A program made the translations under genes and the position numbers. Shown here one piece after another: positions 21,730-64,000 of a DNA stretch of 64,000 nt (positions are counted from its first letter, which is position 1; every line of letters starts with the position of its first letter). The notes under the pieces were generated by a model. It saw only the letters and a program-made list of their open reading frames with translations, ran no database searches and was not told the DNA's origin. The stretch is from Kondoa subrosea (lineage: Eukaryota): NCBI GenBank assembly GCA_039545335.1, contig BCIN01000010.1, positions 1-64,000 on the forward strand, given 5' to 3'.

Positions 21730-24700
21730 CTATACTTTCCTCCTCGTCTGCTCGAGCAATGCCAATCTCTTGAAAATCCCATCTTCCTGCAGCAATTCTT
21801 CCGGTGAACCCATTTGAACGATTCTGCCTTTGTCCATCGCAATCACACAGTCCGCATCTCTGATCGTGGATATTCGATGCGCAACGACAAGAACGGTCAC
21901 GTTCTTGAATTCCTCGCGAAGGACTTCTTGAATCGCTTGACTGAAAGAGACAAGAGAGAGACAATCAGCTCCGCAGACTCTAGGGCTGTTTTTTTAACAT
22001 ACTCAGAGACTGAATCAAGACTGCTGGAAGCCTCATCTAAGCAAAGAATGGGGCGTTTGCGCACTGGAAGCTCATCAGTCCAAGTAGGCACGCGCTGAGA
22101 GATGGATCTCACAAAGAGCACGAGCCAAGGCTAGGAGCTGCCTGTTTCCCCTGCTGATCATCTGACCTTGACTCGAGACTTCATGATCCAATTTGCCAGG
22201 TAGAGCTTCGATGAAGGACTTAATTCGAGCCTTTTCTACTGCTCCCCATAATTCTTCGTCTGTAGCAGTTCCATCAGGGTCCAAATTCAATCTTATAGCG
22301 CAATCAATCAACAAGGCTTCTTGAGGAATGATCGAGATGGCATGTCGAAGTGCTTGAAGGTGTATGGTGCTGATGTCGATCCCGCCAATCAGTATTGACC
22401 CTCCAGCATCGATCTCTTGCAGTCGATAGAGACACGCCAAGAGAGAACTCTTCCCAGCACCCTATCCAAGCTTTTAACTTTTGGTTATAAGGACTATAAT
22501 TCACGACTCACAGTCCTTCCACAAACGCCGTAGACTTTGCCAGGCTCAAGGCTGAGGTTTAGGTTGTGCAGAACCGGCTGGCTTTCTGGTGCATAGCGAA
22601 GTGAGACGTTCTTGAATTGAATACTTGGCTCTTTCAACCAATCGCCTGCGCTTTTACGGAGATCGGTTGCAACTATGTCTTCAGTTGTTTCGCGAGGCAG
22701 GTCAATGACGGCTTGCATTCTTCCGATGGATACCGAGACGATCTCAACCTCTGCACACCTTATCAGCCCAGCGCAAATAGATGAGATCAGCTCGAACTCA
22801 CCTGTCAAAGCTTCGAAGAATGCGCGCAAGATTCCACTTAAAGCAATAGCAGATACAAGAGCGACCGCCAAGGAGGCGTCTGCTTCTCTTCGCGAGACTG
22901 CTACCATAACTAGTACGAGCACAACCAGCATCACAGATAAACCGAGAGACAAGATAAACCAGTTCCTCCCTACTCAGAACTCAAATAAAGAAGGACAGCT
23001 AATCGAGCAGGATGGATACTTACCGGTCCATAACAATAGCCAAGGCTTGTTGAAGTCCGTTACTATTCACTAGCGCTGAGCGTCATACTTCATAAAGCAT
23101 TGATACTTACTGAATTCAGTAGCTTGATGTATTAAAGCAGGTTGAGCAGCAAATGCGCGAATATGTTTCAGGCCATTGAGATCTTGAGCAACCATTACAG
23201 TAGAGTATAACTCGGTTTTGGAAGCGCTAACTAGCTTGCGAAGTTGCTTCGAGGTAGGCAGGTAGAACCTCCTGAAAGCCTCAGCGCAGCAACCTGAGAA
23301 TACCATCACGATCAAGGTGTAAGGACTGGCGATGATTGCAGGCATGACCATGGCGACAATCATCGCAGAAATTTGCACGGCTTGTTGAAGAACCAGCTTT
23401 AATAGAACGATAAGTGATAAGACAGCACAAGTACGCGAATTGAGCTGACTGGCAATTCAGTCTCCACTGCATTGGAGTCACTTGAAAATCTGTTGAGCAA
23501 GAAAGAGCTGGACTGCCGATCGAGCAACGAAACTGCTGAGCCAAGTAAAGCTGTGATTTGACGAATGTGCAGAGCTCTTGCAGCTGCTACTGGATGGCTT
23601 TTGTTCACCGTGAACCACCCTGGCAACAGTATATGAGCAATTGCTCACTAAGAACGAATCTTGACGCTTACATATGGCAGCAGCAATTAGATAGAAGATA
23701 GTAACGCCCACAAGCTGCAAAGATGCATAAGCTTATGAGCCTGGTGGAACCTCAAATACTTACTCCTCCAATCCATTTCCAGGCATCAGCATCTTTCGCA
23801 TCCGATGCGTTCGAAGTCCAAGCTCGCGAATAATAGAGAAAGCCAATCTGGAATAGCGGCCAAGCAAGCAAGCAGAACACAATGGCTGTGACATTAGGTC
23901 TAAGTCCAGCCGCCTTGATATATGTCAGTATGGACGTTGACACTTTGCTTTGATCCGCGTCCGCTTCTCTGTCGGCTCTAGTCTGATTCGCTGTGGAGCT
24001 CGATTCTGATTTATCCAACGACATTGGCACAAACACTTCTTGCTTGCGAATTTGAGGTGACTGATGTGAAGTACTGCTTGCGGAGTTTTCGGCTATACCG
24101 AGATCCTTGTGTGCACTTAGAAAGCCTTGAAACTCTGATTGTTGCGACAAGTCAGCAAAAGAGCCTTCAGTACAGCCAACGCCATCTTCAGCCAAGAAGA
24201 TTAGATGATCCGCTTCTGCAAAGTGATGAGTCGAGTTGGAAGTCATGATGACGGTTTTGTCTTTCAGAAGCCCATTGGAAGTGTTGAACAGTGCTTTGAA
24301 GACGTATGCAGACGTTGTGTTATCGAGAGCACTGAATACATCGTCCAAAATAACCAAATCAGATTCGGCGTAAAGACAGCGAGCTATTGCGATGCGCTTT
24401 TCCCAATTTCAGTGAACAGCGATGGCGGACAGCAAGGAACACAACCAACCTGTTTCTGCCCACCTGAGCTCTCAGTAGCTGGCGAAAGATCTTGCTTATC
24501 CATTTCCGCCAAGTCGATATCTAGACCGCAGGCTTGCAGTACCTGCAAGTACAAAGCTTCGTTCATGGCTTTCCCAAAGAGGATGTTGGAGCGGATGGAT
24601 TCCGAAGGTGAAAGAAACGGATCTTGGGACGCGAAAGCCATAGATACACTCGGAACCGATACTGTTCCGGCTAAGACGTCGTATTCTCTGAGAATACTCA

Positions 24701-27283
24701 TCAAGAAGGAAGATTTGCCCTATTTTGCCGTCAGTATCAGAGTAGTAAAGAGAAGGGATTTCACTTACGCAGCCAACACTTCCCAAAACCACCGTCAATG
24801 CATGACTAGGACAGTGAGCTGTGATATCGCGAAGAAATACTTGTTGGATGCTAGCGAGTCCAATGCTTGCGTTTCCGAGTTGAATATAAACAGGCCTCTC
24901 ACGGGCTTCTTTTTCGCTCAAATCGCTTGCTGAAAAGTCCGCAATGGCGAACCGACAGTTGTCTGTAGGCTTCTCGGGCTGCAGCAAGAAGCCTTGGATA
25001 CGTCCAAAAGACGAGTGGGCAGCTGTGTGGAGATCAATAAAAGCACACTCAAGGCAAAGGAAAACTTACATAGCAGCTTGGAACCTTGCTACAATAGCGT
25101 TTGATGTCAGGCGAGACTTTATTATTGCGAGATAAAACTCACCCAAATGGTACTATTGAATGATAAGCAATTCATAGCAGCATGCATAGTACTAGCCATG
25201 CGACGTACTTGTAAAATTGGAGAGCCACAACTTCGAGTGATGCCAATGCAACGACTAACAATTTGGCATCAAGCTTCTGGGAATGATGTATGCATATGTG
25301 CTTACAAACAGGTCGGTAAGCAAACACGCGCTCTGAAGAGGATTTGCAAGCCAGAGCAAACGCTGATAACAGAGCCACTCTGATAAAAGCAAACATGATA
25401 TTGTAAAACAATCCAGTGATGGATCTCTTGACATTGTATCTTGACATTTCTTTGAGCTCTGCCTCGCGTGTGTTGAGGTAGACTCTTCCGACTACGAAAC
25501 AGATAAGTTGTTAGTATAATGAATCCATGTTCGCTTACAAGGATACTCGTAAGCGCTGAGCTTGATTGCCTTGAAGCTGGTCAAAATGCTCGCCAAAAGT
25601 TTCACTCGTTTGTCTGAAGAGAAAGACGAATCAGGAATGATGTGTCGGGCAACCAGGACAGTCATGTACCTGTCTTTTCACTCCAAGCTGTTTGCGAAAC
25701 GACGAAGCGCTTTGCCGTAAAAGGTATCAAACCCAATGCAATGATAGTCGCAACGAGATAGGCTAAGAAAGATCGTCCAAATTGGGAAGCCACAATAGGT
25801 ATAGATATGGTCGCCAGGACAAGCAGGTTTATAGCGTATAAAGGGACCACTGCCGAGTCGACGACTCTACAGACACATATATAGTCAGCTCTTACGCGTT
25901 GACCACGTCAATTTCGCACCTCTCGACATCTAAAGATAGATAAGAAGATAATGCTCCAGCACCAATCTCTTGAGCCGTTCCAATATGCATTTTCAAGCCT
26001 TTCCTGAAAACCGCTTCTGCAAGGACGGCTCGACTATTCATCAGCATGACGTAAGAGGTGGCTATCAAAACGATGCTAGTCAGATGTACATACACTTTGG
26101 CAGCCGCTTTATAAGCACTGAAATTCCACGCGAAGAACAAGAAGGTGACCAGGAATTGTTGGAGAGTGTAGCCAGCTGCGATACCATAGCCATATGATTT
26201 GGGCGTATCGGGATTTCTAGCAGGGTCATCACATCACATCCGCATGTCACGGCAAGCCAATGTACTTACCCAAGAAATGCGAGCAGTGCGCTGAGTAACA
26301 AGGGCGATAAAGATGCGATACAGCACCATAGAATTGAAGGTACGACGGGCTTGAGTAAATCCAGCTTGAAGGCGGCAAACAGAGCTTGAATTAGAGGAAT
26401 GGATGAGTTCTTGCCTCTGTTATTCCAAGAGACCTCGAAGCGTTGATAGAGCTGAGCTGAATTCTCATTTGCTTGCCCTAGGTCTGCCATCTGCAATCTA
26501 GTCTTTCTCCCTTTTCGCAGAAGAGCAATGAACCAGAATGCACTGTAGCGATTGATGAATCCAACAGTCGAAGCAGGTGCAAGGAGCTGTGAGTCAAAGA
26601 AGGTAAGGTATCTGGGTTCCCTAACGACAAGCGAAGCTAACCTTTCTCGCCTCAGAATCAATGAGCATCGATCTCTTATCTGCATTCTCCAGTCCAAATA
26701 GCACGACGCGGCAGCCATATCCAATCACAAACGGGACAAAGAAGAGCTTCTCCCTAGCAGAATAACCAACAAGAACGAAAGATCGGATGCGAGCCATATC
26801 CAACACGACCACCAAAAGTAGATAGAGTGCAACAGTCTGTGATGATCTGATGTTGCGGAAGTGTTCCAATGACGAGACAGCGGACATTATGATCTATTTG
26901 TGGGCGATTAGATAGTTTTCGAACAGGCGATTGAGGTAGGTACTCACAGCTGCGAACATTGATATAGCCAAAGCAGCCGTACCATTTCGATTATGTGCGG
27001 TCGATGTCGTCCAGCCAATGAGACTGATGAGACTCGTAACTGACCAGAGAGCACCACAGGCGAGTTTGCTGCAAAAGAGTGCCAATGACTCGGTGCTTCG
27101 GTTGATCTGCACAGCTTTAAAGCGAAGTCTATATAATCTGACCAAACCAAAGCATATAGCGACTCCAGTTGGAAGAAGAGACAGGAAGATGCTTGAAAAG
27201 GCCAGAGAGAAATCGAATTCCCGACAAGACTGGCCAGGGAGATCACAGAGAGACCAGTCATCAGGGCAAGGCGAGCGAGGCAT
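21730..27283 (-). CDS. ABCC (MRP-like) full-size ABC transporter with TMD0, copy 1
   Basis: N-terminal CREFDFSL. NBD1: GSVGC/GKS, SSGGQKQ, ILDDVFSALD. NBD2: GRT/GAGKSS, ISRGNRQ, LDEASSSLD, VAHRISTI. Not every internal splice junction was verified. Confidence 0.85.
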
Positions 27284-27622
27284 TGCGATGTATGGTTTGC
27301 GAGAAGACGTTAATCTGAGTGTACTGATGACCAGTACAAAGGAGAGGTAGAATTCACAGAGAAGAAAACAGAAAGTAGGCAATGGACGTAATAGGCTATG
27401 GCTGAAAACACAGCAAACGTATTTTGCTGCGTAACGCGATATCGGCACTGTTTGCTTCAAAGAAAAGAATGTCGAACACAGCTCTGCCAGGGATCAGTCT
27501 CGTACAGTGCATGTCGAAGAGCTGAAAGAGCCAGCTGGAATCTAGTCTGGGTGGCCGTCTGTGGACGAGTGAGCGTGTCGAAGTTCAGAATGTTTTGAGC
27601 ACGAACAGCGAAGTCCTACAAA

Positions 27623-34887: not shown

Positions 34888-37800
34888 ATGACTTCTGCTG
34901 CGCGAGATATGAACGAATCCACAATCAGCAGAAGAGGCTATTCAAGTGTTCCATCTCGTGATTCAGTCTATGCAGACGAAGAGGCGCGTTTCTCAACAGT
35001 CAAACTCACTCCTCAGCAACCTTTGTATGCAATTGACGATGATGGAGGGCCTTCCAAGAAGGGAATACAGCAAGAAGCACCTATTGAATCCAACAGAGCG
35101 GATCTCATCACTATGGCTGCGCTGCTATTAGGGGCTGCGGCTCTGAGATTTCTGCATATCAGTCATCCTTCGGGCGTGGTGTTTGACGAAGTTCATTTCG
35201 GTCGCTTGTGTGTTTGCATGCTAACGATCACGCATAATTTATGCTGACATTCAACTTAAAACATACAGCTCATCGTATTACCTGAAAAGAGAATATTTCT
35301 TCGATGTACATCCACCATTAGCCAAACTTCTTCTCGCTTTCGCAGGCTATGTAACAGGGTTCAAGGGTGATTTCGGGTTTGAGAACATTGGTGATGACTA
35401 TATCAAAGCTGGCGTACCTTATGTCGGGATGAGAGCTTTCCCTGCGGTGTTTGGAAGTTTGACGGTCCCTGTTATTTATGCTATTATGAGGGAAGTAGGG
35501 ACACCTAGGATCTTCAGTATTTTCTCTGCGGCTCTGATATTGCTCGGTCAGTGTTGCTAGAGTCATCAGCTGCAGACAGCTGATCCAGAAACAGATAACG
35601 CTCATGTCACTCAAACTCGATTGATACTGCTGGATGCACCTCTCCTTCTGTTCATGTCGATAGCGGTCTTCTCTTACATTCGCTTCTATCGTTTACGCTA
35701 CAAGTCAGTCCAGTCAATAATATAGTACAACTACTCTGAAATTTCTAACACAGCGAATTCTCTTTCCGGTGGTGGAAATGGCTTTCAACAACGGGAGTCT
35801 TCCTCGCGTTAACCATCAGCTGCAAGATGAATGGCCTGATGACGTTCATGACTATCGGGACTGCTGTTGTGATTGATATGTGGAATATTTTGGATTATCG
35901 GAGAGGCAACGATCTAGTGCGTAAATTCGCTCGGCTGCTGTGGATCTTACTAAAAAGAGGTACCAGGATCATGTTGTCAAACACTTTGTTGCTCGAATAT
36001 GGACTTTGATAGTCCTTCCCGCCGTGGTCTATATGTTTTGGTTCTGGGTCCACTTTGCTATCCTCACCAAATCAGGCACTGGAGATGACTTTATGAGTCC
36101 TGCATTCCAAATGACTTTAAGCAACAGTCCTTTGACATTGAATGCTGAAGGTATGAAAGCCATGTAGTTTGTCAGTCAAGTCGGCTGAAAGCTGGCGGGT
36201 CAGAAATTCGCTACTTCGATGTCTTAACGCTACAGCACAAGCATACAAAAGCTTTCTTGCATTCTCATCCGGAGAAATACCCTCTCAGATATCCAGATGG
36301 CAGAATCAGTAGTAATGGCAAGCTTCTGTTGATATGCGCGGCACGTTGATAAAGCTAATATCTTGATGCAGGTCAGCAAGTAACAGGTCAGTGGAACTGT
36401 TCATTAACACCGATGATTGTATTCTGATGGTATATCCATTGACAGGCTACCTATTCAACGACACAAACAATCATTGGGAAATCCTGCCTACGAAAGAATT
36501 ACCAGATACAGGTCGAGGCAAGATCGTCCGTCACAACGATGTCATCCAACTTCGTCATGTTCTGTCCAGTACTTTGCTTCTTTCGCACGATGTAGCTAGC
36601 AGTCTTATGGCTACAAATACTGAATTCACAACCTGGAACGATACTGAACCTTTAGAGCACGAATTGATAGCAGAAGAAGGAGTAGAACCACCTCCGGCTT
36701 GGCAAGATCGATCTTCTGATACAATGTTCCGGTTGGAGATTGAAGATGCTCATGAAGGGCAACAATGGAAGACTAAAAGTGGTTACTTCAAGCTCATTCA
36801 TGTGGATACGGGCGTCGCTATGTGGACACATACTGATCCTTTGTTACCTGATTGGGCTCATAAGCAACAAGAAGTGAATGGGAACAAAAAAGTTGAAGAA
36901 AAGATCAATACTTGGGTTCCAGCAGAAATCATCAGACCCAGTAAGTCTGAGATCGTGTTTGTTAGGCACATGTGAGCTCAAGTGGTTGTCAGACTCAACA
37001 GAAGCGGATCTGCTGCGACCCCCTCCACCAGTGAAGAAAGTGCAGCGTAGAAACTTCTTCAAGAAATTCTTCGAGCTTCAGGTCCTCATGCTGCAACATA
37101 ACGCAGCTCTCACAGACAGTCATCCTTATGCATCTCAACCTATCGAATGGCCATTCTTGGCGAGCGGAATCAGCTTCTGGACTAGTCCTGCCGAATTCAA
37201 ACAGCAAGTCTACTTGATCGGTAATTTCATTGGATGGTGGTTTGCTTCTGCTTCTCTAGCTATTTTTGTGGGATTCTGTATTGGAGACGCTTTGACCTGG
37301 AGAAGAAACAATGATCTGATCGGTCCTCGTAAGTCGCAATTGGATGATTAAATCTTTGTGGCTCAACCTGTGCGAGCTTACAGGTTTGCGATCGAGACAT
37401 CTCAAGACTACCGGCTTCTTCTTCATGGGTTGGGCTTTCCATTATCTCCCATTCTATCTCATGACTCGTCAACTTGTGAGGGATTCATTGTCAAGTCTTC
37501 TCGCATGCTCATCAGATATTTTAGTTCTTACATCACTACATGCCAGGTATAATCATTCCATTCAATCATGTGCATCACTGCTCACAAAGTATTAGCACAC
37601 ATCTTTTCTGTTTTGGCAGCTGGAGCAATCTTACATTTCCTGTGTACCGACACAATCAACTACCCCAATTCGATACCCGGACCTCAAACACGACGTCGGC
37701 CATTACAACATCCTCGCCAATCTGTCAAGATCACCAATCCCCATATCGCTATAACAGTGACTCTGCTTGTTCTGGTCGTAGCTGGTTTCATCTATCTCAG

Positions 37801-37945
37801 TCCGCTCACCTACGGTACACCTGGCTTGGAACCGAGTGCAGTGAACAGAAGAAGGATCTTGAGCTCGTGGACACTTCATTTCGTCCGTTTCCTTCCAGCC
37901 CGTTTTCGTAGACTGACGTCGGCTTCGGTGTTCCAGGCAAAATAG
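34888..37945 (+). CDS. PMT4: Dolichyl-phosphate-mannose:protein O-mannosyltransferase, PMT4 subfamily (GT39)
   Basis: VVFDEVHFG, FFDVHPPLAKLL, SGTGDDFMS, MIR region LHSHPEKYPLRYPDGRISSNGQQVTGY (PMT4-type), HPYASQP and HYLPFYLM. Confidence 0.92.
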
Positions 37946-49508: not shown

Positions 49509-52500
49509 TTATTGGTTTGCTCTAGCTAAAGCACTGAAAACTCCGCCCTTTGCAAGTAAATCTTGAGGTTTGCCCATTTCGACAACTCTTCCCGCATCCA
49601 TGCAAATCACCTAGTAAGTTTGATTAAAAAGTCATCGATTGGGTCTCATTGCCACATACTAGATCCGAATCAATAATTGTAGATATTCGATGTGCTACAA
49701 TCAACTTCATCACAGAAGGGAAAGCCGTCCTGAGGGTATTTTGAAGGGCAGCATCAGATTCAAGCTGCAAGTCAGTGTAAGCTGAAGCAATGAGATTAGA
49801 CATATAGAAGCCTACATCGAGACTTGATGATGCTTCGTCCAAGCACAAGATCTTTCTATTCCTAAGCACAGCTCTTGCCATGGCGAGCAATTGCTTTTGT
49901 CCAGCGCTGAGACTGCCGCCGGATGCCTTGATATCGCTGTCGAGGCCGTTGGGCAAAGCTTCGACAAAGCCACGGCACTGGAAATGATGGGTAAGGAGAC
50001 GGCATATACGCCAGCAGGCAGAGACGCACAGAAGCTACATCTAGAGCTCGCCAAATCTCAGCATCGCTATACACTCCTTTCAAATCTAGGTTCTCTCTGA
50101 GAGTCAGATCGAGAAGCAAAGGGTTCTGAGCGATTAACGTCATTTGATTTCTCAAATTATGTCGCGATATAGCATTGATGTCCTGACCGTCGATCGAGAT
50201 AGAACCAGACGACATGTCGACCATCCTGAACAAAGCGTTCAAGAGTGTAGACTTTGAAGAACCAGTACGTCCGCAGATGCCAATTTGAGAACCAGGTGGA
50301 ACAGAGAAAGAAACATTCCTGAGCGATAATTTTAACTCTGGTCTGTAGCGGAAACAGACATCGTGGAACTCAATAGCGCCACAAGTGATGCTCTGCTTGG
50401 TTTGTGATGCTTCTTCCTCTTTTGGTAGATCTACTATTCCTTTGATTCGCTGCACTGCAACACTAGCAACATCAAGCTGCAACAACAGCTTGAAAAAAGC
50501 GATAACTGTGAAAGGAAATGCTGCAGCAGCCAGCAAAGATGAACCTGTACTCGCTGAAGAAAATCTTTGTACGATGCCAACGGAGACGAGAATGATTGCA
50601 AGTAAGGCTGAACTGAGCTCCAACCAGAATTGAATCCAGACAGTGCACATCCGCGAGAGCAGGAAAGGCGTATTTGCCGTATCGATGAGTTTGCCAACTT
50701 GTTCCTGCATGGCTGCTGCTTTGTCGAATGCTCTGATAGTACGTATGCCTTCGGCGTTGCATGTCTGAGGTTGCTTTCTTCAGCTTGCAGATAACATGTC
50801 AGGTCACGACGAGCTCACATCTGCGCACGAAGCGAAAAGCGGAGACCTTGATTCGGACTCCAGTTGCCGGAGCATGACACTTGTAGGGTTGAATATTCTT
50901 CTGCCGACAACTCCCACAAGGAGCGTAATCGCAAAAGCCAGTAAAGCCCAACGAGTCGAGACACAGGAGAAAATACCGATAGCGAGCAGAGCCACGCCAA
51001 ATTGAACGACATCGGCAAATCCATAAGCGAACTCGACTTCATGTATTGCGCAATCGCTCGAGAAATGATTAAGTATATATCCAGGCTTATACTGGTCCAA
51101 AGACGTCAGATTCGCCCTGAAGAGCCTATTAAAAACTGTTGTCCAAAGCGAACAAAGATGTCACACCTCATCAGTCCGTTGATTTGCTTGATATGCAATG
51201 CTTTGGCCGATGAGATTGGGTGATACACATCAGAAGAGAGGAAAAAGGCAATTGTTCCAAGACTGATAGCGACGGCAAGAGCGGCCTACAAAGCTGTCAG
51301 ACACACTAAGGCAAGATAAGTAATCATCTTACAAACCCCCCAGCCATCGAGCGCTCGTGACCAGGATGAGAGGCCCAAATCTGCCTCGTAGTCAACTCTC
51401 ACTCACTCCCCGTACAGCGATGCAGCACAAACCTCAGCCAATAATGGAAATCCTACATTTTGTAGAGATATGCCGACTACAGCGCCTAGTATCAGAGGAA
51501 TCAGCCATAGCCCGCCCGAGCGAATTTGCTCTCTGCAGGCCATGTATGTGGTAAATGGCGAAGTCTTCTCATCGTCAGGTGCAGCTGCTTCTTGTGACAA
51601 CAAGGCGTCATCTTTGCACTCTGCAAGACGCGTCTCGATACCTGCAGAAGTATCTGGTGAAGTCGCATTCTGCAAGGCTGCAAGGAGTTGGTTGGTCGAG
51701 GCATCAGATTGCGAGCCTTGCGTGATAATACTAGAATCTTGCAAAGCGACGACATGGTGGGCTCGAGAAATGATACTAGGGTCGTTTGAGACGAGTACTA
51801 CTGTTTTGCTGATTAGAATTCCCGCAGGTCCAAAGAGAGAAGAATAGATGCGACGAGCTGTAAGCTGATCCAGGGCTGCAAAGCAATCGTCGAGTAGCAG
51901 TATATCTGATCGGCTGTAGATAGCTCGGGCTAAAGCTATTCGGGATTGTTGCCCGCCAGACTGGCCACAGGACATCAATTCTGATATATATGTGCTTTCA
52001 CAACTTACTAGACCAGTTGCCAGATGAGCATCTCCTCCGCTAAATGTCCTGATATCCGTGTGTAGATCACAAGCGGTCAAGACCTTGTCATACCAAGCAG
52101 CTTGATATTGACTGTGAAAGAGAATATTATTTTTGATCGAAGAAGAAGTCTGAAGCCATGTTTTCTGTGAGCAGTAGCTGGTTGTCGCAGAACAAGACTT
52201 TTCAACGACTGCTCCGCGGAGACAGTCCATTTCGCCCAAGATAGTCTGCAACAGTAGCGTTTTGCCTTGCCCGACTCGACCGACGATCGCTGTCAACTGA
52301 CCCTCTGGTATGCGCAAGTGGTCGAGCGACAGTAAGGGCATATTATCAAAACCGAATTGGCCATTTGCGTAGATACCGTTGGTTTGCTTTTCTGTTTTGA
52401 GCTCTTCTGTGGAGCTCGGGTTCGATAAAACTCGAAGAGATGATTTCTCACTCTGCTGAAGATAGTTATTGATGCGAAGCAGAGAGGTCCAGCCTGATGC

Positions 52501-54358
52501 TAGTGTCATGAAACCCCAGCAGAAGTTCAGATACTGAAGTAAAGCCTGAGCTTGTATCAAGGGAAGAAGTTGGCACGTACAATAGAGCCTATCAAGTCAA
52601 GACTCGATATTGCGACATAGAGATTGCGCGAGCTGAATTGTAGATGACCCGCTTTGATCAGCAGACAATAAGTACTATAGTTGACTTAGCCTGCATTGTA
52701 TCAACAGTCGGGCGTCAACTCACACCAGGGTTGCAGATTTGATCAAAGCCCAGTTCGTTGACTGTACTGTACCATTCACAGCGGCTCGCAGCTTGTACGC
52801 CAGCATTTTTGGACTTGATCAATTATTCAGCTGATTCAAAGGACATGGCATATGGAACACTCACATCTCCATATCTCGCCTATGCAAGTATTTACCAATG
52901 ATAGATTTCTCATAGCCATTCAATTTAATAGGCAACAGGCAAGCCAAAATGCCAGTGAGCAGTTGTACTCGCGAATCGGTTGCAGAGCTCCATTCTTTTT
53001 GATCATTTGCCGCTTGCATCAAGGCAATAGGAATCAAGGACAACGCCAAGATAATTGCGACCAAAGCAGTGACCATAGATAGTTGGGCATGAATCCAGAG
53101 AAAAGCCAAACCGAATCCAAGTACGAGGGGCATTTGAAAAAGGTTTTGAATCCTCCAGATCGCGTTGACGATTCTTCCCACATCTACTTCGATATGATTG
53201 GAGGCAGCTCCAGCTGCACCGGAACCTTCGACAATACTGACATGATTGCGCAGAGACTTGCGATAAACAGCTTGAATGAGAGTCGCTCGTACGACCAAAG
53301 CCATTTTTGTCATACTTTGGAAGATTAGGCAGGAAAAAAGAGCTCGAAAAATGTAAAGTAGGGCTGTTGCGGCAATAATACCGTACCCATAAGACATGGG
53401 TTGGTCGCTTCCGGTAGCAAGAAATTTCAAAGTTGCGTTCAGAATGAGAGGTGACAAGCAGATATTCAACCCAGCCAACCAAGAGAAGACGACAGGCGCA
53501 AACATGATTTGTCTGTTTGACCAAAAGAGTGATCTGATAAGCGGTAACCGCCGCTTCCGATAAGTGAGCCACTGTTTAGCAAACCGCTCATACGCTTCTT
53601 CTGAATCGATGATGTTGTCTTTCAGATCTGCTTGGTTGATTCGTTGCTTCAGACCAGTGAGAAGTAGAGGGAAAATCCAAGATACCGTCAAACGCGAGAT
53701 TGGTCCAGCGGTGGCTTCGAGGGAAAGCTGGGGACTCCCAGTCAGTCTAGTGTCGGGATGTACAATAGAGCCTGACCTTCTCTTGCAAATCTTTTGCCAG
53801 GTAACGTCTCTTGCTGATATTCTGTAACACTAGACTAAGGCCGCGACAGGCGATCGTAAGACAAGAAACGGCGAAGAAAAAGGTGTTTGATTCCGATATC
53901 TTGGTAAGGGCATAGGTACGAATTTTAGCGGCTCCAAAAACTAGGCTTAGGAAGTAGTAACAGGTAAGAAGCCATCCGCTGCTGTAAGAATGCAAATAGC
54001 TGTATCGTACGAGAGGAATTGCTGAAACTGATGCCAGCACATCAATTGCCAGAGCACTGATCGGCAGAGCATATCGGAGTTCAGATTGTCTTGTCCAGGC
54101 TGCAAGACACAGCAAGGCGAAGATGCTATCCAATACCACAACCGAGAGTGAGGCCTTGAGTAGAAACTGATGTCGAACGGAGGAACTGAAGCGAATTTGC
54201 GGACGTTGACTTAAAGTATAGATCTGAGCCAGAGACAAACAGAGGAAGAGACTTGAAGGGAGTAAACCAACCGCAGCAAATTCAAAACCTAGCGAGAAGT
54301 CGAATTCTCGACAATCCGAGAAGTCTAACTGCCATTCGTAAAAGCACAAAGGTAACAT
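49509..54358 (-). CDS. ABCC (MRP-like) full-size ABC transporter with TMD0, copy 2
   Basis: N-terminal CREFDFSL. NBD1: GRVGQGKT, L/SGGQQ, LLDDCFAALD. NBD2: GRTGSSKS, LSAGQKQ, LDEASSSLD, VAHRISTI. Confidence 0.88.
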
Positions 54359-54376
54359 CGAGTATGGGAGAATTGA

Positions 54377-54392
54377 AGAGAGAGAGAGAGAG
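54377..54392. repeat. (AG)8 microsatellite, i.e. (CT)8 on the sense strand just upstream of the ABCC copy 2 start
   Basis: Read directly from the sequence. Confidence 0.9.
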
Positions 54393-54654
54393 AAGAGTAC
54401 GACGAAGACCAGAAACAAAGGGCAGAGCATTTTACATACATCGGTCCGCAATTCAGCACAGCGGATGCACTGCAGTTCTGTCATACCAGTACGTGAAGCA
54501 GATCACTCGCGGACATATGCTGTTCGACACCGCCGGTAGGGGAAAAGATGCTGTGCTGCTGACGACCGTCTTCGGCTCCTTGGCAACGTACAACGATTCT
54601 GCTGATCTAGGAAGTGTATATACCAGTGCTAATTATACATTTTCTGTGATTCCG

Positions 54655-55438: not shown

Positions 55439-55895
55439 ATGTATGGAAGAAGAAGTAGTAGAAGAAGAAGAGGCGCGTTCGTTTAGCTATATTTGTTCAC
55501 TAAGCATTCACTTGTACAGATTATGTTCTTTACTGCTCATCTGTTTCCTTCACCTACGTCCAAGACTGGCAGATGAATGTTGAGATCGCTGATCTGTTAT
55601 TTTCTGTCTGTACCTGCAGCCATGGTCACCTCGCGATTCTCTTTGACCAGGCTTCGAATGTTCATGAGTAGGTACTCTGTTCTCTCTCTCGTACAACATA
55701 ATACAAGTCTACGGGCACAATGTCGTCTCTTCTTCGCTCTTCAGCTAATCCAAGCTGGGGATCTTATCAACAAGTGGGCGTACATCAGCTGACACTCTTT
55801 CATTGTAATGGCGCTGTCCATCACCTGCTTTTCTCTTGACTTGTCTGCGTTACTTTCTGTTCACCTGACTTCATTTCCTCATCTTACTTTCAGCA

Positions 55896-57639
55896 ATGTC
55901 TGGATCCTCGATACCGCTATTTCTGAGAATAGTGAAAGAGATTTCATCGCTTCAGCCAAACGTGAATCCTTATTCTCGATTGTGAGTAGTCGCAGTGCTC
56001 GACACGAACACGTCTCAGAGCTTGTCAGCAGCTTGAGCATGCTGTACGGCTTGCTGTACCTTCAGGTGTCGGATCTGCCTTTGCAGCGAAGCTAAATTCT
56101 GATCCCTGCTACAAAGCTCGGTAAAACCTTCAATCGACTTATGATTGCCAATGTTGTCGCGTGCGGCATCTCGCTTCTCTGCTATTCAGCCTTTCTGGCG
56201 ATAAGACGGAAGAAGCAAACATTGTGGTTTTACAAATTACAGACCACAACTTTTGGTAGTAGGTCATTATGATTCCTTATGCTTTCTTTCTTGCTGAAAT
56301 ATAGCAAAGATCTGATAGTTCCAAATACCATCAACCTCTTTGCACTCATTTCGATGCTGCACTCTATTGTCTCAATACCGGTTGTCACCATGTTGATGGA
56401 AGGCTATAAGAACAACATGCGACCTGATGCTTATGCTTGGTTCCTGCCTATTCTTTGGCCACTGAGTCAGTCTCAACCGTCAGCATTCGTGTCTACGCTG
56501 AAGGCTTGAATAGCTTTGATGGTTCTCGTATCAGAATTACAGTAAGCTTGAATAGATTTAGTATCTTCCGTCGCTGATAAGTCTATATAGCGGTATCAGT
56601 GCTTTCTTGTACATGTGCGCTTCAGCACGCAACACACTAAGACTATGCGGATGTGTCGTCAGACCTTGGCTTCTGAACATTGGCTTTCTGTAAGTATCGG
56701 CAGACTGTCTGATCCATTTCAAGCTGACGGTAGTGCAGATCTCTATACATTATAGTCATTGGCGCGCTAGCAATTCCATTCGGCTTCAGTGGTAGTCAAT
56801 TTACAAAGGCAACCAATGCCATCGATTCGTTCCTCGCTGTCATTATCGCGGAAGGTAAAACTTGGCAAGAAGGGCAGCGCTTTGCTTTCCCTGGTAGTTT
56901 CCTGCCTCACGGTGTCTCTAATACGTGTCTGATAACATCTTCACAGCCTCACGGCTACCCCTCATTACGGAAATGACATCTCAAGCGGACGTCATGATTC
57001 GATACTCTCGAATCGCCTGGCAAACCCTTCTAGTCTTCGTCGTCTTTATCACTTGTCTCTTCTTACCCGTAGCCTACCTCTATGTTCGGACAATCGCTCG
57101 ACAGCTTCAAATGGCTCGCGATCGAGTTCAAACTGCTTCAGACTCCTCGCAAGAAGCGAAACAACTTCAATTTGCTTATTTCGCAATGTTAGTGTGTGCT
57201 TCTTCCCCGCTGATTTCACAAGTTAATCCCTTTGTTCCATTAGGCTTATTGAACTCTTCTTGATTCTACTGGCTTCAGTAGCCTACTCAGCTACCGCAGC
57301 TGAATTCGGCGTCAATTACAACAAATTGGTCGAAAGCGCCGATACTATTGCAAGTGTTTTAGGAGTGATGTATTCGATCTACCCTCTGCTATCACTCAGC
57401 GCTAGTATTGTGCTGCTCATCCGCGCTTCAAAAGAATGGTCAGATCAAGGTAAGGCAGGCAGTATTTTCAACAAGAGCAAGAGGTCATCTCTATTGATGA
57501 TCAAAGATTTCAATAGTAGGTTTATATCTAACGCTGTGTATTTGTGTCTGACGGCTTCTCTCTATATCAGATCCGAGTAATCAAAACTGTGGAATTGGAT
57601 GATATGCTTAGTAAGCAAGAGAAAGAAGATTTGGCTTGA
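55896..57639 (+). CDS. Orphan membrane protein with about 7 predicted TM helices
   Basis: Multi-exon frame assembled from MSGSSIPLFL...NPYSR to ...QEKEDLA*, with seven hydrophobic stretches counted by eye. Start and some junctions are tentative. Confidence 0.65.
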
Positions 57640-57774
57640 GGTTGGCTTGTCGCGCTTAGACAAGATTGTATCAGAGCTGTAGCCATAAGTTTCATGCACA
57701 AATCCGAGACCGACAGAGAATGACTTCTTACGATTCTATTGCGTCCGACGGTACCTTTCTACAAACAGCGAAAT

Positions 57775-58655
57775 ATGTCTGTAAGGCTCAAAGCTTGATT
57801 GACAGTCAAATGACCGCTAATGCTGCATGACAGTCTACTACTGAATCAAGCAAATGCGGCTGCCCAGTCACTCTCAAGGATGGGACAAAGCAGGGTTCGC
57901 TTTTCTTGTTCTGCCTGTCTTGTATGGATCAGCTGACTCGGCTGTCCAGTCTGCCAATGTCAACCTTGCTCGTGAGCTTGCGCCGCAAAAGCTGGAATGA
58001 GCTGTATGCTGATCTTCCAACCATGCCACAGTGAACAAAAAGATTACGGTATGCTGTTCGTCCATCTATACTATGTGCTTTGTGCTTAAATGCTGTGGTA
58101 GCCAATTGCACTTGCGTACGTACCTGCTGTGACTTGCCTTGGATGCATGTTGAAATACAGCTGTGCGTAGAACAAGCAGACTGGTCCGTGTACTTTCGTC
58201 TGCTGGCCATCTTCATGACCTCACTGTAGTACTGTAGGATGCGCTTGCAAAGGGGATGCTAGCAAATGCGTGTAAGTTCCTGCCTTCGGATATGAGAAGC
58301 AACATTCTGAGTGACGACAATACAGTTGCAAAGCTACTGGACGTATGTGGTAATTTGTGCACCTTTGAGACATCTCTCATTCTGTATACGTATCATGTAC
58401 AGAATCATGCAACTGCAGGTGGGCTCTTCCACTGACTTTGTCAGCGAAGCTTTTTAACGCGATTTCCCAGTTCCGCTACCGGTCAATCAGTCTCTTGCGG
58501 TCAGAATAAAGCCGGTGGATCATGCTCTTGCGGGGTCGGTTTCTCTCACCATTCTCGCTTCACATTGTACTGACACATATTGGGTTCAGAGCAAATGCAG
58601 CTGTGGATCAACTTGCAGTTGTTCACCTGCTGAACCTAAGCACGAGAAGGCTTGA
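57775..58655 (+). CDS. Metallothionein (long fungal CxC-repeat type), 11 exons, 109 aa, 20 Cys
   Basis: Exons 57775-57780, 57834-57894, 57950-57971, 58032-58048, 58102-58115, 58171-58183, 58238-58271, 58326-58342, 58403-58418, 58471-58534 and 58590-58655 total 330 nt. Ten GT-AG introns of 52-60 nt. Product: MSSTTESSKCGCPVTLKDGTKQVCQCQPCSEQKDYANCTCNKQTGCACKGDASKCVCKATGQSCNCSSATGQSVSCGQNKAGGSCSCGSKCSCGSTCSCSPAEPKHEKA. Confidence 0.9.
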
Positions 58656-59265
58656 AGGAAGTGTGCGACTTAAGCAAAGTGTCGGTAAGGATGTACTCAA
58701 TCGTATAGCAGCGCATTTGCAATCCGCATTTCAGATATCGCTTTCCCTGCTTTTAGGGAAGAAAGCTTCGGGAAGCTCAGTCTTCATCTAGTAGGAGTAG
58801 CCGACACTGATCTACTGAGCTCCGACGTGACTCGCGCCACTTTTGGGAAATCAGACGACCCTCCGCGAATTGATGAGCAGGTTGACCAAAGTCATTCACC
58901 TTGAGCTTTATTTCGCCCTTCCGCTTGCCTTGAACGCATAAAGAGGTCAACTGAGCTCGTTGCAGTCTACATTTCGCACGCTCAAGCTTCGACTGGGTCT
59001 CACTTGCAAGGCTCGATATCACAAAACGCTTGCCAATCTTCCCTCGCAACCGAGGTCTGGTCAGTAGAAGGGACACGCACAATAGCTACAGATCTCATCT
59101 ACCGACTTGCAATCGCTTGGTCTACTAGTCCTTTCGTGATAAAACGCACAACTGTCCAAACTTGTTCGTGATGCTTTCTCTGCTGGCCTACTCTCGCGTC
59201 TACAGAGCTGATCATAGAGTCTACACAGTAGATCAGGCTACTCTAAACATCCTACCCAACACGCA

Positions 59266-61209
59266 ATGAGCACAATCCCAACTCAGGTCGACGCTGACGC
59301 TTCAGGCTGGCGATTCGCTCAATGCTTCGGTGATAAAGGAGAAGTAGAAGATATAACAGAAGCAGACATTATTGTAAGCTCTACTATTCGGCGCTTTACA
59401 TGCACGGCTTTCCCCTTGAGGAATCATTGACCTTTTGTTTTACTTTTATAGTCGACAGTCGAATTCTCTCATACTGGAGATTACCTAGCAACAGGTGATA
59501 AAGGTGGAAGAGTGGTTTTATTTGAAAGATCAGGCTCATCAAAGAAAGGATGCGAGTACAAGTTTTATACCGAGTTTCAATCCCACGAACCGGAATTCGA
59601 TTACCTCAAGAGCTTGGAGATTGAGGAAAAGATCAACAGGATCAGGTGGTGCAGGAGAGCTAATGCTTCTCATTTCTTGCTATCTACAAACGGTCGGTAT
59701 TCTTTCGAGAGGATGTCAGCTTGAGCTGATTCACCTCTTGTTTGGGGCGACAGATAAGACGATCAAGCTATGGAAAGTGTTTGAAAAGTCATTGAAAGTA
59801 GTTGCGGAGAACAACATGTCGACGCATCAAAATTCTTCAGGATCGCTCAACACGACTGATCTTCGGCCACCCTTCTCAACTTCAACCTCAACTTCCTCTG
59901 CGCAATCAACTAACGGAGCACTTCTACCCAATTCAGCTCTTTCTAGTTCACTCAGCTCAAATTCCAGCGGACCAATATTCCACCTACCGAAACTGACCTA
60001 TCACGATACTATTGTTGCTGCTGTTCCAAGAAAAGTCTTCGCCAATGCTCATGCTTATCACATCAACTCCATTAGTATCAACTCAGATGGGGAAACGTAC
60101 ATGAGTGCAGATGATTTGAGGATCAATTTGTGGAATCTGGCAATCAGCGATCAAAGTTTCAGTGCGGAAGATTCTCAGGCTTAGCACTATATTTGTTAGG
60201 CTGATATGTCCAAACGCACAGATATATTGGACATCAAGCCTGTCAACATGGAAGAGTTGACTGAAGTCATCACCGCTGCTGAATTTCATCCTCTTTCGTG
60301 CAACCTTTTCTGCTACTCGAGTTCGAAAGGAACAGTCAAGCTGGCGGATATGCGAGACTCTGCGCTGTGTGACAGGCATGCAAAATGTACGTGATCTATC
60401 GTGCTTTACACATACTGTGTTGAGCAGATACTGGATTCGTACAGTGTATGAAGAGGAGGAAGATCCATCCAACAAATCTTTCTTCTCCGAAATCATTTCT
60501 TCCGTCTCCGATGTCAAGTTCAGCAAAGATGGGCGCTACATTTTATCCAGAGATTACCTCAGTTTACGTATATGGGATATCAACATGGATTCCAAACCTG
60601 TGCAAACTATTTCAGTTCATGATCATCTTCGAGGCAAACTTTGCGACCTGTATGAAAACGATTGCATCTTCGATAAATTCGAGTGCACTTTCTCTGGCGA
60701 TGGAGAGTGAGTCGGAGCATTGCGTTTAAATCAGGCTAGTGTCCTGATGTTGCATGTATTCACTTCACAGACATGTCCTCTCTGGTTCTTACAATAACTA
60801 TTTCCATATTTACGACAAGAATGCAGAAACGGATGTGGTCCTGCAAGCGGATAAATCAGCTTTCAAGGCTAAGAAGACAGCAGGAGGCAAGAACAATGGT
60901 GCGAATAAGGGAAGTGGACCAGCTAAAGGCAACGCAAGCAAGAAGTTGGTTGAGACAGACAATATTGATTATCAGAAAAAGATCTTGTGAGTGGCTTAAT
61001 GCGGTATGATAGATCAGTGCTGATGTGATTTTGGATGGTGCAGACATGCTAGTTGGCACCCACAAGAGAATGTGGTCGCTATTGCAGCTACTAATAACCT
61101 CTTTGTCAGTGATAACGGTTGATTCAGCTTAGTTTCTAGCTGATTGTGTGCAACATCTTGACAGATTTACTCTGGAGAGAAGAGCAATCAAGCAGCTATG
61201 CAACCTTAG
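59266..61209 (+). CDS. CDC55: Protein phosphatase 2A B55 regulatory subunit
   Basis: [87 protein letters not shown] and IAATNNLF. Confidence 0.97.
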
Positions 61210-62697: not shown

Positions 62698-64000
62698 ATG
62701 TCGAATCCCGAAGAGCAGAATGTCGAGACAGTGTCAGAGCAGACGCAAGTCACTGAACATCAGCAAAGCGAGCCTCAAGCAGAACAGATACCAGCAACAA
62801 CAGAGTCTGGGGTTGCAACCGTTAAAGCGTCTGGGAATGAAGAAGGAGCTGCTCCTATAGTTGAAGAAGCTCCTCAGACTTCCTCACCAGTAGCAGAAGA
62901 GCCAGAGCCCATCCAAGAACAGGAGCAAGAACAAAAGCAGCCAGAGCCAGTCTCGCCAGCTACGAAAGCACTCGAGCTTGGGCAGGATTTCTTTTCAGTG
63001 TTTGGGTCTGTAGATGTACCGAATGAAGTGAGTGCTAGATCTATCTGAGTATACTGTAATGCTTATATGGTTATACAGGGTTCTGTATGTGATGCATGCG
63101 AATCGCGGGTAGGCAATACTCATCCTCTTATGGCAGCTACCTTTCCCTGGACCTACTTACGAGACGGCCAAGATGGCCCAAACTCTGCTGACAGAGAATC
63201 ACGTCAAATGGCATTGCTTTATGCATGAAACTGGTGGCCTTCACAACCATGTCTCGCATCACATTCTTGCTGCCTATAGCTTAGGTGCACCAATACATAC
63301 TTTACAAGCAGCCTATGAACTTCATTTACCTTCCATGCGACCTCTACAAGCGCCCAAATACAAGATAGACGAATTCAACTTCTCTCACTACTTGGGAGAG
63401 GACGAAGCATACTCGTCATACTTGGCTTTCTTCCACTTGAAAGTTCAGCAATCTTCCTCAGCTGAAGTCATTGAGCAATTCCTCTTCAGCGACAGTATCA
63501 ATCGAATTCTCGTTCGAATGGTTTCCGGTGCTATTCATCCTCTAATTCAAATGGGTTATGGGGTAGAGTTTGGCTTGGACGCACTAGTGTGCGAAGGGTT
63601 GGCTCAAGCTTGCGTACATTCCACAATGGCAAGTCAACTATTCCCATCTACTTGGCCCTTGAACAAAGCAGAACGCTTTCGCTCACCTTCAATCTCTACT
63701 TCTTTTTCTTCTTTCACTCAACGTTTAAGTACAATTACTGGAGGAAACAAGAAGATGAACTTCGCTGCAACTGCTAAATCAATGAATAAGAGTAGACAGA
63801 GAGTTAACAACTTGGGTTTGAGTGGGTTCACCATCTTGGCGCAATGTCTGAAAGATCCGGAGCTGGCTCCTGGTGCTGCTAATAAGATGGACGATTCGTC
63901 AAAGTTTACTTCTGCGTGCGTTTCTTGCGCCAGTGGTATCGGAGCATAAGCTGATTTTGAGAGTAGGTTGGAAAATAAGGGTGATGTGATCAGGAGATGG
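62698..64000 (+). CDS. Questin oxidase-like / AflY-HypA (DUF4243) oxidoreductase; runs off the window end
   Basis: HCFMHETGGLHNHVSHHILAAYSLGA, YLGEDEAYSSYLAFF and MVSGAIHPLIQMGYGVEFG...EGLAQACVH; acidic disordered first exon; 6-nt microexon at 63079-63084. Confidence 0.85.

Follow-up and report, generated by a model that had tools for sequence, protein, structure and literature searches.

Gene content of the locus

The window, that is the 64,000-nt stretch of Kondoa subrosea DNA analysed here, carries an 11-exon gene for a predicted metallothionein (MT) between a gene for a putative membrane protein and a gene of the PP2A B55 type (Table 1). The 3' end of the membrane-protein gene is uncertain and lies ~135–255 nt ahead of the MT start codon; a possible weak paralogue of this gene was noted elsewhere in the genome. 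The downstream gene was recognised as PP2A B55-type from its sequence, its WD40 matches being below cut-off. Neither neighbour points to a metal cluster. Elsewhere, the window harbours two genes for ABCC/MRP-type ABC transporters, a class that includes the cadmium-glutathione pump Ycf1, as well as a Questin oxidase-like gene. It also contains the gene for the O-mannosyltransferase Pmt4, an exon of which finds its best matches in Microbotryomycetes, Atractiella and Mixia (54–60% identity); this probably places the host in Pucciniomycotina, at some distance from any annotated species.

Table 1. Features of the MT locus, of the remaining window and of the genome. Positions refer to the window unless a contig or locus handle is given.
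Feature	Position	Strand	Remarks
ABCC/MRP-type ABC transporter gene	~22400–27500	-	by ORF translations
Pmt4 O-mannosyltransferase gene	~34900–37900	+	~12 short introns; one probably GC-AG (36318–36371)
ABCC/MRP-type ABC transporter gene	~49600–54500	-	by ORF translations
Multi-exon membrane-protein gene	~55585–57639	+	weak 7TM match, E 0.001, below cut-off
Yap1/AP-1-type site	57608..57614		167 nt upstream of MT start
MT exon 1	57775..57780	+	start codon and one codon; followed by GTAAG donor
MT exon 2	57834..57894	+	Cys10, Cys12; also found by Cys-blind model
MT exon 3	57950..57971	+	Cys24, 26, 29
MT exon 4	58032..58048	+	linker; sole aromatic residue of product
MT exon 5	58102..58115	+	Cys38, 40
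MT exon 6	58171..58183	+	linker; alternative start 58161 if exon 7 begins at 58230
MT exon 7	58238..58271	+	Cys46, 48, 55; alternative start 58230
MT exon 8	58326..58342	+	Cys57
MT exon 9	58403..58418	+	Cys64, 66
MT exon 10	58471..58534	+	Cys76, 85, 87
MT exon 11	58590..58655	+	Cys91, 93, 97, 99; stop codon
Ten GT-AG introns	57781..58589	+	52–60 nt; between the 11 exons
Questin oxidase-like gene	63113–63949	+	PF14027, E 3e-48
Possible paralogue of membrane-protein gene	L034, contig C1 ~4.034 Mb		weak, E 0.33
Short MT-like gene	L047:1407–1614, contig C5 ~373.7–373.9 kb	+	one of 11 pattern matches
Exons of short MT-like gene	L047: 1407–1434, 1487–1540, 1601–1614	+	introns of 52 and 60 nt
Copper-fist transcription factor gene	L002/L051, contig C9 ~383.4–385.0 kb	-	Ace1/Cuf1 type; intron-split
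Phytochelatin synthase gene	L053/L054, contig C2:2296423–2297114	+	two exons above Pfam cut-off
Phage ORFs	L069:571–654, L087:571–660, L107:571–654, L130:571–660, L150:274–354	-	27–30 aa

When the MT gene was rebuilt from the exon lengths of the original prediction, one clean path connected the start codon at 57775 with the stop codon at 58655; a second open path needs introns of 71 and 42 nt. From first to last, the introns measure 53, 55, 60, 53, 55, 54, 54, 60, 52 and 55 nt. All ten are of the GT..AG type, that is, all 20 splice dinucleotides are canonical, the acceptors are invariably CAG or TAG, and the frame stays open over the ten junctions. Thus, the predicted structure, comprising 11 exons, ten introns and a stop-free frame of 109 codons with 20 Cys, could be reproduced base by base. 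CTRAY branch sites are present as exact matches in four introns and with one mismatch in four more; no such match was found in introns 4 and 5. All four introns of a length divisible by three (introns 3, 6, 7 and 8) contain an in-frame stop codon, as expected if intron retention is selected against, which argues weakly for the gene. A DNA search of the 18.9-Mb genome (27 contigs) returned only the self-match, indicating a single copy at the DNA level, and none of the five N positions in the window is anywhere near the MT gene.

The original prediction gave too much weight to the microexon structure. Introns of ~48–61 nt, a size range that the MT introns match, and internal exons of ~15 and 22 nt are also present in Pmt4 nearby, and judged by this predicted gene, short introns and microexons are normal for this genome.

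The predicted product has 109 aa, a mass of 10.97 kDa and 20 Cys (18.3%) at residues 10, 12, 24, 26, 29, 38, 40, 46, 48, 55, 57, 64, 66, 76, 85, 87, 91, 93, 97 and 99, corresponding to spacings of 1, 11, 1, 2, 8, 1, 5, 1, 6, 1, 6, 1, 9, 8, 1, 3, 1, 3 and 1. Nine CxC pairs account for 18 of the 20 Cys; two Cys are single and CC is absent. One Tyr (0.9%) is the only aromatic residue, Phe and Trp being absent, and there is one His. The numbers of CxC pairs, single Cys and aromatic residues are the same as previously predicted. Ser (18), Lys (12) and Gly (11) are abundant, the GRAVY is -0.57, and aliphatic and aromatic residues add up to seven altogether. Within the first 35 residues, the Kyte-Doolittle mean over nine residues reaches a maximum of 0.62, which by this crude test argues against a hydrophobic leader or signal peptide.

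Splicing signals and alternative junctions

To assess the reality of the gene, a free splice search was used, in which any GT-AG intron of 50–62 nt was permitted and the number of CxC was maximised from ATG to stop. This search yielded nine CxC at the MT locus, a number reached by none of 200 dinucleotide shuffles, whose maximum was five (once). Among 252 strand-windows of 1001 nt, more than three CxC were obtained only in the two which between them include the greater part of the MT locus. The method can be fooled by TG-repeat DNA, as illustrated by 42 CxC from one TG repeat. However, 17 of the 20 Cys codons in the MT gene are TGC, and the repeat listing for the locus comprises short dispersed repeats only and no tandem array.

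In addition, we employed a Cys-blind splice model trained on eight introns of the neighbouring Pmt4 gene, to which two Pmt4 homologues were aligned. The training set consisted of seven of the eight introns on which both alignments agree and one intron from a single alignment; the first Pmt4 intron was left out because its donor looked misplaced. For the branch-site score and the length prior (53 ± 5 nt), values were chosen manually when the MT intron lengths were already known, so that the model is blind to Cys, but not fully blind to intron length. At two of three penalty settings, the best open chain contained seven of the ten introns exactly, together with all nine CxC, and the remaining three introns agreed at one end. 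At the strictest penalty, five of nine introns were in common with the MT gene model. The chain score of 28.9 at the MT locus would rank fifth among 252 control windows, in which the top 15 chains contain 0–1 CxC each. In this model, intron 1 ranks at the very top of the GT-AG pairs (100th percentile); introns 4, 5 and 9 have weak signals, corresponding to the 54th, 71st and 75th percentile, respectively, of the 10,789 GT-AG pairs of 45–66 nt in the window. Taken together, the nine CxC as compared to at most five in 200 shuffles and the recovery of seven introns by a Cys-blind model support the claim of a real spliced gene, unannotated and split into microexons.

The gene may be real and MT-like and yet be joined differently, which we regard as possible, though rather doubtful. 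Introns 5 and 6 each offer another AG ahead of the modelled acceptor (58160 and 58229, respectively). Used together, these two acceptors preserve the frame and yield 115 aa with 22 Cys and all nine CxC; either of them alone breaks the frame. Furthermore, an upstream ATG at 57720 in conjunction with a donor at 57777 (exon 57720–57776) also reads into exon 2. The paired acceptors or the 57720 start could replace the junctions given in Table 1, or both forms could be made, and the Cys-blind model indeed favoured all three alternatives. However, the upstream acceptors reduce these introns to 45 and 46 nt, whereas the Pmt4 introns supported by both alignments measure 48 nt upwards, and the best branch-like sites are located only 6–7 nt ahead of these AGs. 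Translation from 57720 would bring in aromatic residues and rely on a GTCTG donor in place of GTAAG. Given the short introns and the close branch-like sites, we prefer the original acceptors of introns 5 and 6 with reasonable confidence. The junction alternatives alter the gene model, not the protein class.

Relation to known metallothioneins

Excerpts of PMC7216689 define MT sequences by a length of at most 300 aa, less than 10% aromatic residues and 15–35% Cys. At 109 aa, 18.3% Cys and one Tyr (0.9%), the predicted product is within all three limits, so that its earlier classification as an MT by composition holds. The CxC-type Cys arrangement and the lack of a signal peptide according to crude hydropathy are additional MT features. 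In the ESM Atlas, the peptide of exon 11 lies closest to unnamed 47-aa clusters and MT clusters (0.79–0.83); the nearest named clusters are metallothioneins (0.79–0.80), which at values below 0.9 is a lead only. No usable match was obtained in the Atlas when the two MT families were left out.

Pfam searches with single-exon peptides of 20–44 aa from the MT gene matched no family (0 of 3 and 0 of 2), and a PDB sequence search with exons 11 and 2 returned no chain. Protein searches with the frames of exon 11 and exon 2, each including intron-encoded residues, listed three and seven candidates, respectively, none at E ≤ 10; with ~20 coding residues per query, such blanks are weak. The lone match of a search against all representatives, a 533-aa repeat protein aligned partly via intron-encoded residues, was rejected. 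Likewise, all seven matches of a metagenome scan with the last intron and its flanking Cys codons were discarded as TG-repeat or GC-rich chance, and loose CxC patterns across the genome itself detected mostly CAG/CTG microsatellites. A scan of viral contigs for a triple CxC motif produced at least 117 loci, 12 of which passed a composition filter, with no fungal homologues among the matches listed. As no homologue of the MT product was found, conservation does not back the gene model.

With CnMT1 and CnMT2 of Cryptococcus neoformans and the Tremella mesenterica protein TmMT, all of them Cu-thioneins, the product has in common that it is a long basidiomycete MT with mostly CxC-type Cys, small-residue spacers, many short exons and a liability to be annotated wrongly. 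TmMT is encoded by 10 exons, and intron-rich, mis-annotated fungal MT genes have been described before (PMC4755600, in excerpts). However, the modular proteins consist of tandem CxC-x3..6-CxC-x3..4-CxC-x2-C units, which in strict as well as loose form have no match in the MT product. Unlike the Cryptococcus and Tremella proteins, the product lacks a tandem repeat structure. It also lacks PP, whereas those proteins have a Pro doublet after the second CxC (excerpts of PMC4755600). Exons measure 6–66 nt as compared to 63–105 nt in the CnMT/TmMT genes, the Cys share is 18% as compared to 23%, and the subphylum differs. Hence, the proposed likeness to the modular Cryptococcus MTs fails, since the product is not made of repeated 7-Cys modules, and the assertion that its Cys spacing departs from this module is borne out.

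Family 8 MTs (Neurospora, Agaricus) resemble the product in a CxC-G-S-x-CxC core (PMC4755600, in excerpts), but the family 8 pattern CxC-x5-CxC-x3-CxC-x2-C, spanning ~26 aa, has no match. The Agaricomycete heptaCys pattern C-x4-CxC-x2,3-CxC-x4-CxC (PMC12508003, in excerpts) is similar, though not identical, to the end of the product, which reads C-x8-CxC-x3-CxC-x3-CxC. Introns of ~50 nt are shared with the genes of both groups, whereas the product is about two to four times longer than their MTs. As far as its predicted sequence goes, the MT product belongs neither to the modular MTs of Tremellales nor to family 8, and it also falls outside the heptaCys group of Agaricomycetes.

Exons 10 and 11 together encode CxC-G-x2-CxC-G-x2-CxC (residues 85–99), the six-Cys pattern of plant type 1 MTs; only one such domain is present. 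The pattern also occurs in unrelated phage ORFs of 27–30 aa, and is therefore likely convergent. These ORFs, located on five phage contigs (Table 1), encode 8–9 Cys, are preceded by a Shine-Dalgarno-like motif and lie between conserved phage genes. The two that were tested gave weak Pfam Metallothio matches (E 0.003–0.006, below cut-off), and the ORFs possibly represent phage-borne mini-metallothioneins. A related CxC-G-x-K-CxC was seen by eye in Candida glabrata MT1 of family 9 (Table 1 of PMC4755600, in excerpts). Exon 10 contains a 22-nt repeat (82% identical, 33-nt spacing), according to which the lone Cys76 may be, on weak grounds, a decayed CxC. In a DNA search for internal duplication, one pair of intron-exon units was striking relative to base shuffles; it was dropped, as 89 of 391 control chains reached an equally high score, and no significant trace of duplication was left.

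In length and composition, the product comes nearest to CrdA of Aspergillus nidulans: compared by make-up only, both proteins have 109 aa and one aromatic residue and are rich in Ser and Lys. CrdA/Crd2-type proteins have ~75–110 aa, 4–7 scattered CxC and few aromatic residues, the lower length bound being that of Crd2; the product has 109 aa and nine CxC. It could be encoded by a real gene of this kind, which is metal-responsive, adds little to tolerance and provides an early buffer or a thiol antioxidant. We consider this unlikely. An ETDFT-type C-terminal motif, shared by CrdA and Crd2, is missing from the Phe-less product. DUF7871 (PF25277), the profile linked to CrdA and Candida albicans Crd2, had no match in the genome, in an exon-by-exon search that had no control match and is blind to microexon genes; a genome search with PF01439 likewise had no match and is uninformative. 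In CrdA, the ETDFT terminus was read by eye from primer CrdA-gsp6 (PMC5447758, in excerpts). According to the same excerpts, CrdA contains 16 Cys and seven CxC, as compared to 20 Cys, nine CxC and one His in the MT product. CrdA is metal-induced, yet its deletion causes no metal sensitivity, and its authors propose an antioxidant role (PMC5447758, in excerpts).

The region upstream of the long MT gene bears on the same alternative. Seven consensus motifs were scanned against background windows, and none is significant upstream of this gene. The Yap1-type site at -167 would suit a CrdA-like role; however, an equal match count is found in 6% of background windows for this one of seven motifs, and the site could still be part of the preceding gene's final exon. 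Three GCTGA sites are present at background level (30% of windows), all at least 379 nt upstream and inside the neighbouring gene, so that copper-fist control of the long MT gene is unsupported. The GCTGA-rich upstream region belongs instead to the short MT-like gene, which has five sites within 500 nt (2.4% of background windows, uncorrected for seven motifs), a distribution compatible with a long protein of the CrdA/Crd2 kind.

MT families are known to be polyphyletic, and Cys patterns not described before turn up often. An independent MT lineage in Pucciniomycotina without tuned splicing has, in our view, about an even chance of being correct, and is much likelier than one with isoform splicing. 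The latter reading, in which a new family of long MTs grew independently of the Tremellales 7-Cys modules by gain of single CxC units on microexons and forms in-cell splice isoforms of 16–22 Cys with differing metal capacity, appears improbable. Such isoforms would arise if the two upstream AGs in introns 5 and 6 were used jointly, or through skipping of exon pairs 3–4, 5–6, 7–8 or 8–9; of the eight adjacent internal pairs, these four keep the frame when skipped, which equals the chance expectation.

Proposed function and significance

A silent or decaying gene is a highly improbable reading. The start codon is only ~135–255 nt away from the upstream gene, depending on where that gene ends, the 375 nt ahead of the MT gene contain no + strand TATA box, and introns 4, 5 and 9 score weakly; on the other hand, the frame is open through ten junctions, 20 of 20 splice dinucleotides are canonical and N positions are far off. 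A chance chain of GT-AG pairs within non-coding DNA, or else a secreted peptide rich in disulfides, is a practically negligible reading: GT-AG pairs are plentiful and TG repeats can mimic CxC runs, but no shuffle reached nine CxC, the Cys-blind search arrived at nearly the same chain, a TG repeat is absent, the product has no hydrophobic leader, and Rfam returned for 57000–59500 a single match at chance level (E 0.47).

We hold it to be quite probable that the locus is an intact spliced gene, present as a single copy in a Pucciniomycotina fungus and encoding a cytosolic predicted MT of ~11 kDa. By analogy to MT chemistry, the apo-protein would be unstructured, and its 20 Cys thiolates would let it fold round metal ions. 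The Cys probably form three clusters of 5 Cys (residues 10–29), 8 Cys (38–66) and 7 Cys (76–99) separated by linkers of 8–9 residues, and the protein would buffer surplus soft metal ions in the cytosol. By analogy with the 20-Cys vertebrate MTs, ~6–7 Zn or Cd ions could be bound per protein. The capacity would be ~14 Cu(I) if the ratio of five Cu per 7 Cys of Cryptococcus MTs holds (PMC4755600, in excerpts).

A preference for Cu(I) has roughly equal chances of being right or wrong; it is favoured by the precedent of the long basidiomycete Cu-thioneins, the long intron-rich fungal MTs characterised to date all being of this type according to excerpts of PMC4755600. Mixed binding of Zn, Cd and Cu is conceivable, though less probable, and a role mainly as redox buffer would be rather surprising. 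The precedent of CrdA (PMC5447758, in excerpts) is a warning that the contribution of a protein of this kind to metal tolerance may be small, and the long Tremella MT is not induced by Cu (excerpts of PMC4755600).

Other genes of metal metabolism were detected outside the window (Table 1). The short MT-like gene has GTAAG donors and GCTGAT branch sites in its introns and encodes 31 aa with 6 Cys in the pattern C-x3-CxC-x3-CxC-x2-C, which resembles Magnaporthe MMT1 and Uromyces PIG11. One exon of the copper-fist gene is above the Pfam cut-off, with a KGRP motif and further Cys-rich segments downstream. Phytochelatin synthase occurs in Pucciniomycotina and is absent from Agaricomycotina and Ustilaginomycotina (PMC4410428, in excerpts). 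The long MT probably complements the short 6-Cys MT-like protein as a partner of high capacity, beside the copper-fist regulator and phytochelatin synthase.

Literature on long MTs of Pucciniomycotina was not found in the mainly open-access sources covered, and similar sequences may be listed in Supplementary Data S1 of PMC12508003 or in MT surveys of subscription journals; a passing mention of rust metallothioneins in excerpts of PMC9465030 was the sole item on MTs of this subphylum. Judged by the predicted sequence, the protein is of a known kind, but its Cys pattern fits none of the fungal groups with which it was compared. Since MT families are known to be polyphyletic, no new mechanism has to be invoked. 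As no exon of the MT gene encodes more than 21 residues, the gene escapes annotation, and a splice-aware CxC search could provide a census of such genes across fungal genomes. For Pucciniomycotina, the predicted gene adds a long MT with an unclassified Cys pattern, which points to more than one origin of long MTs in fungi.
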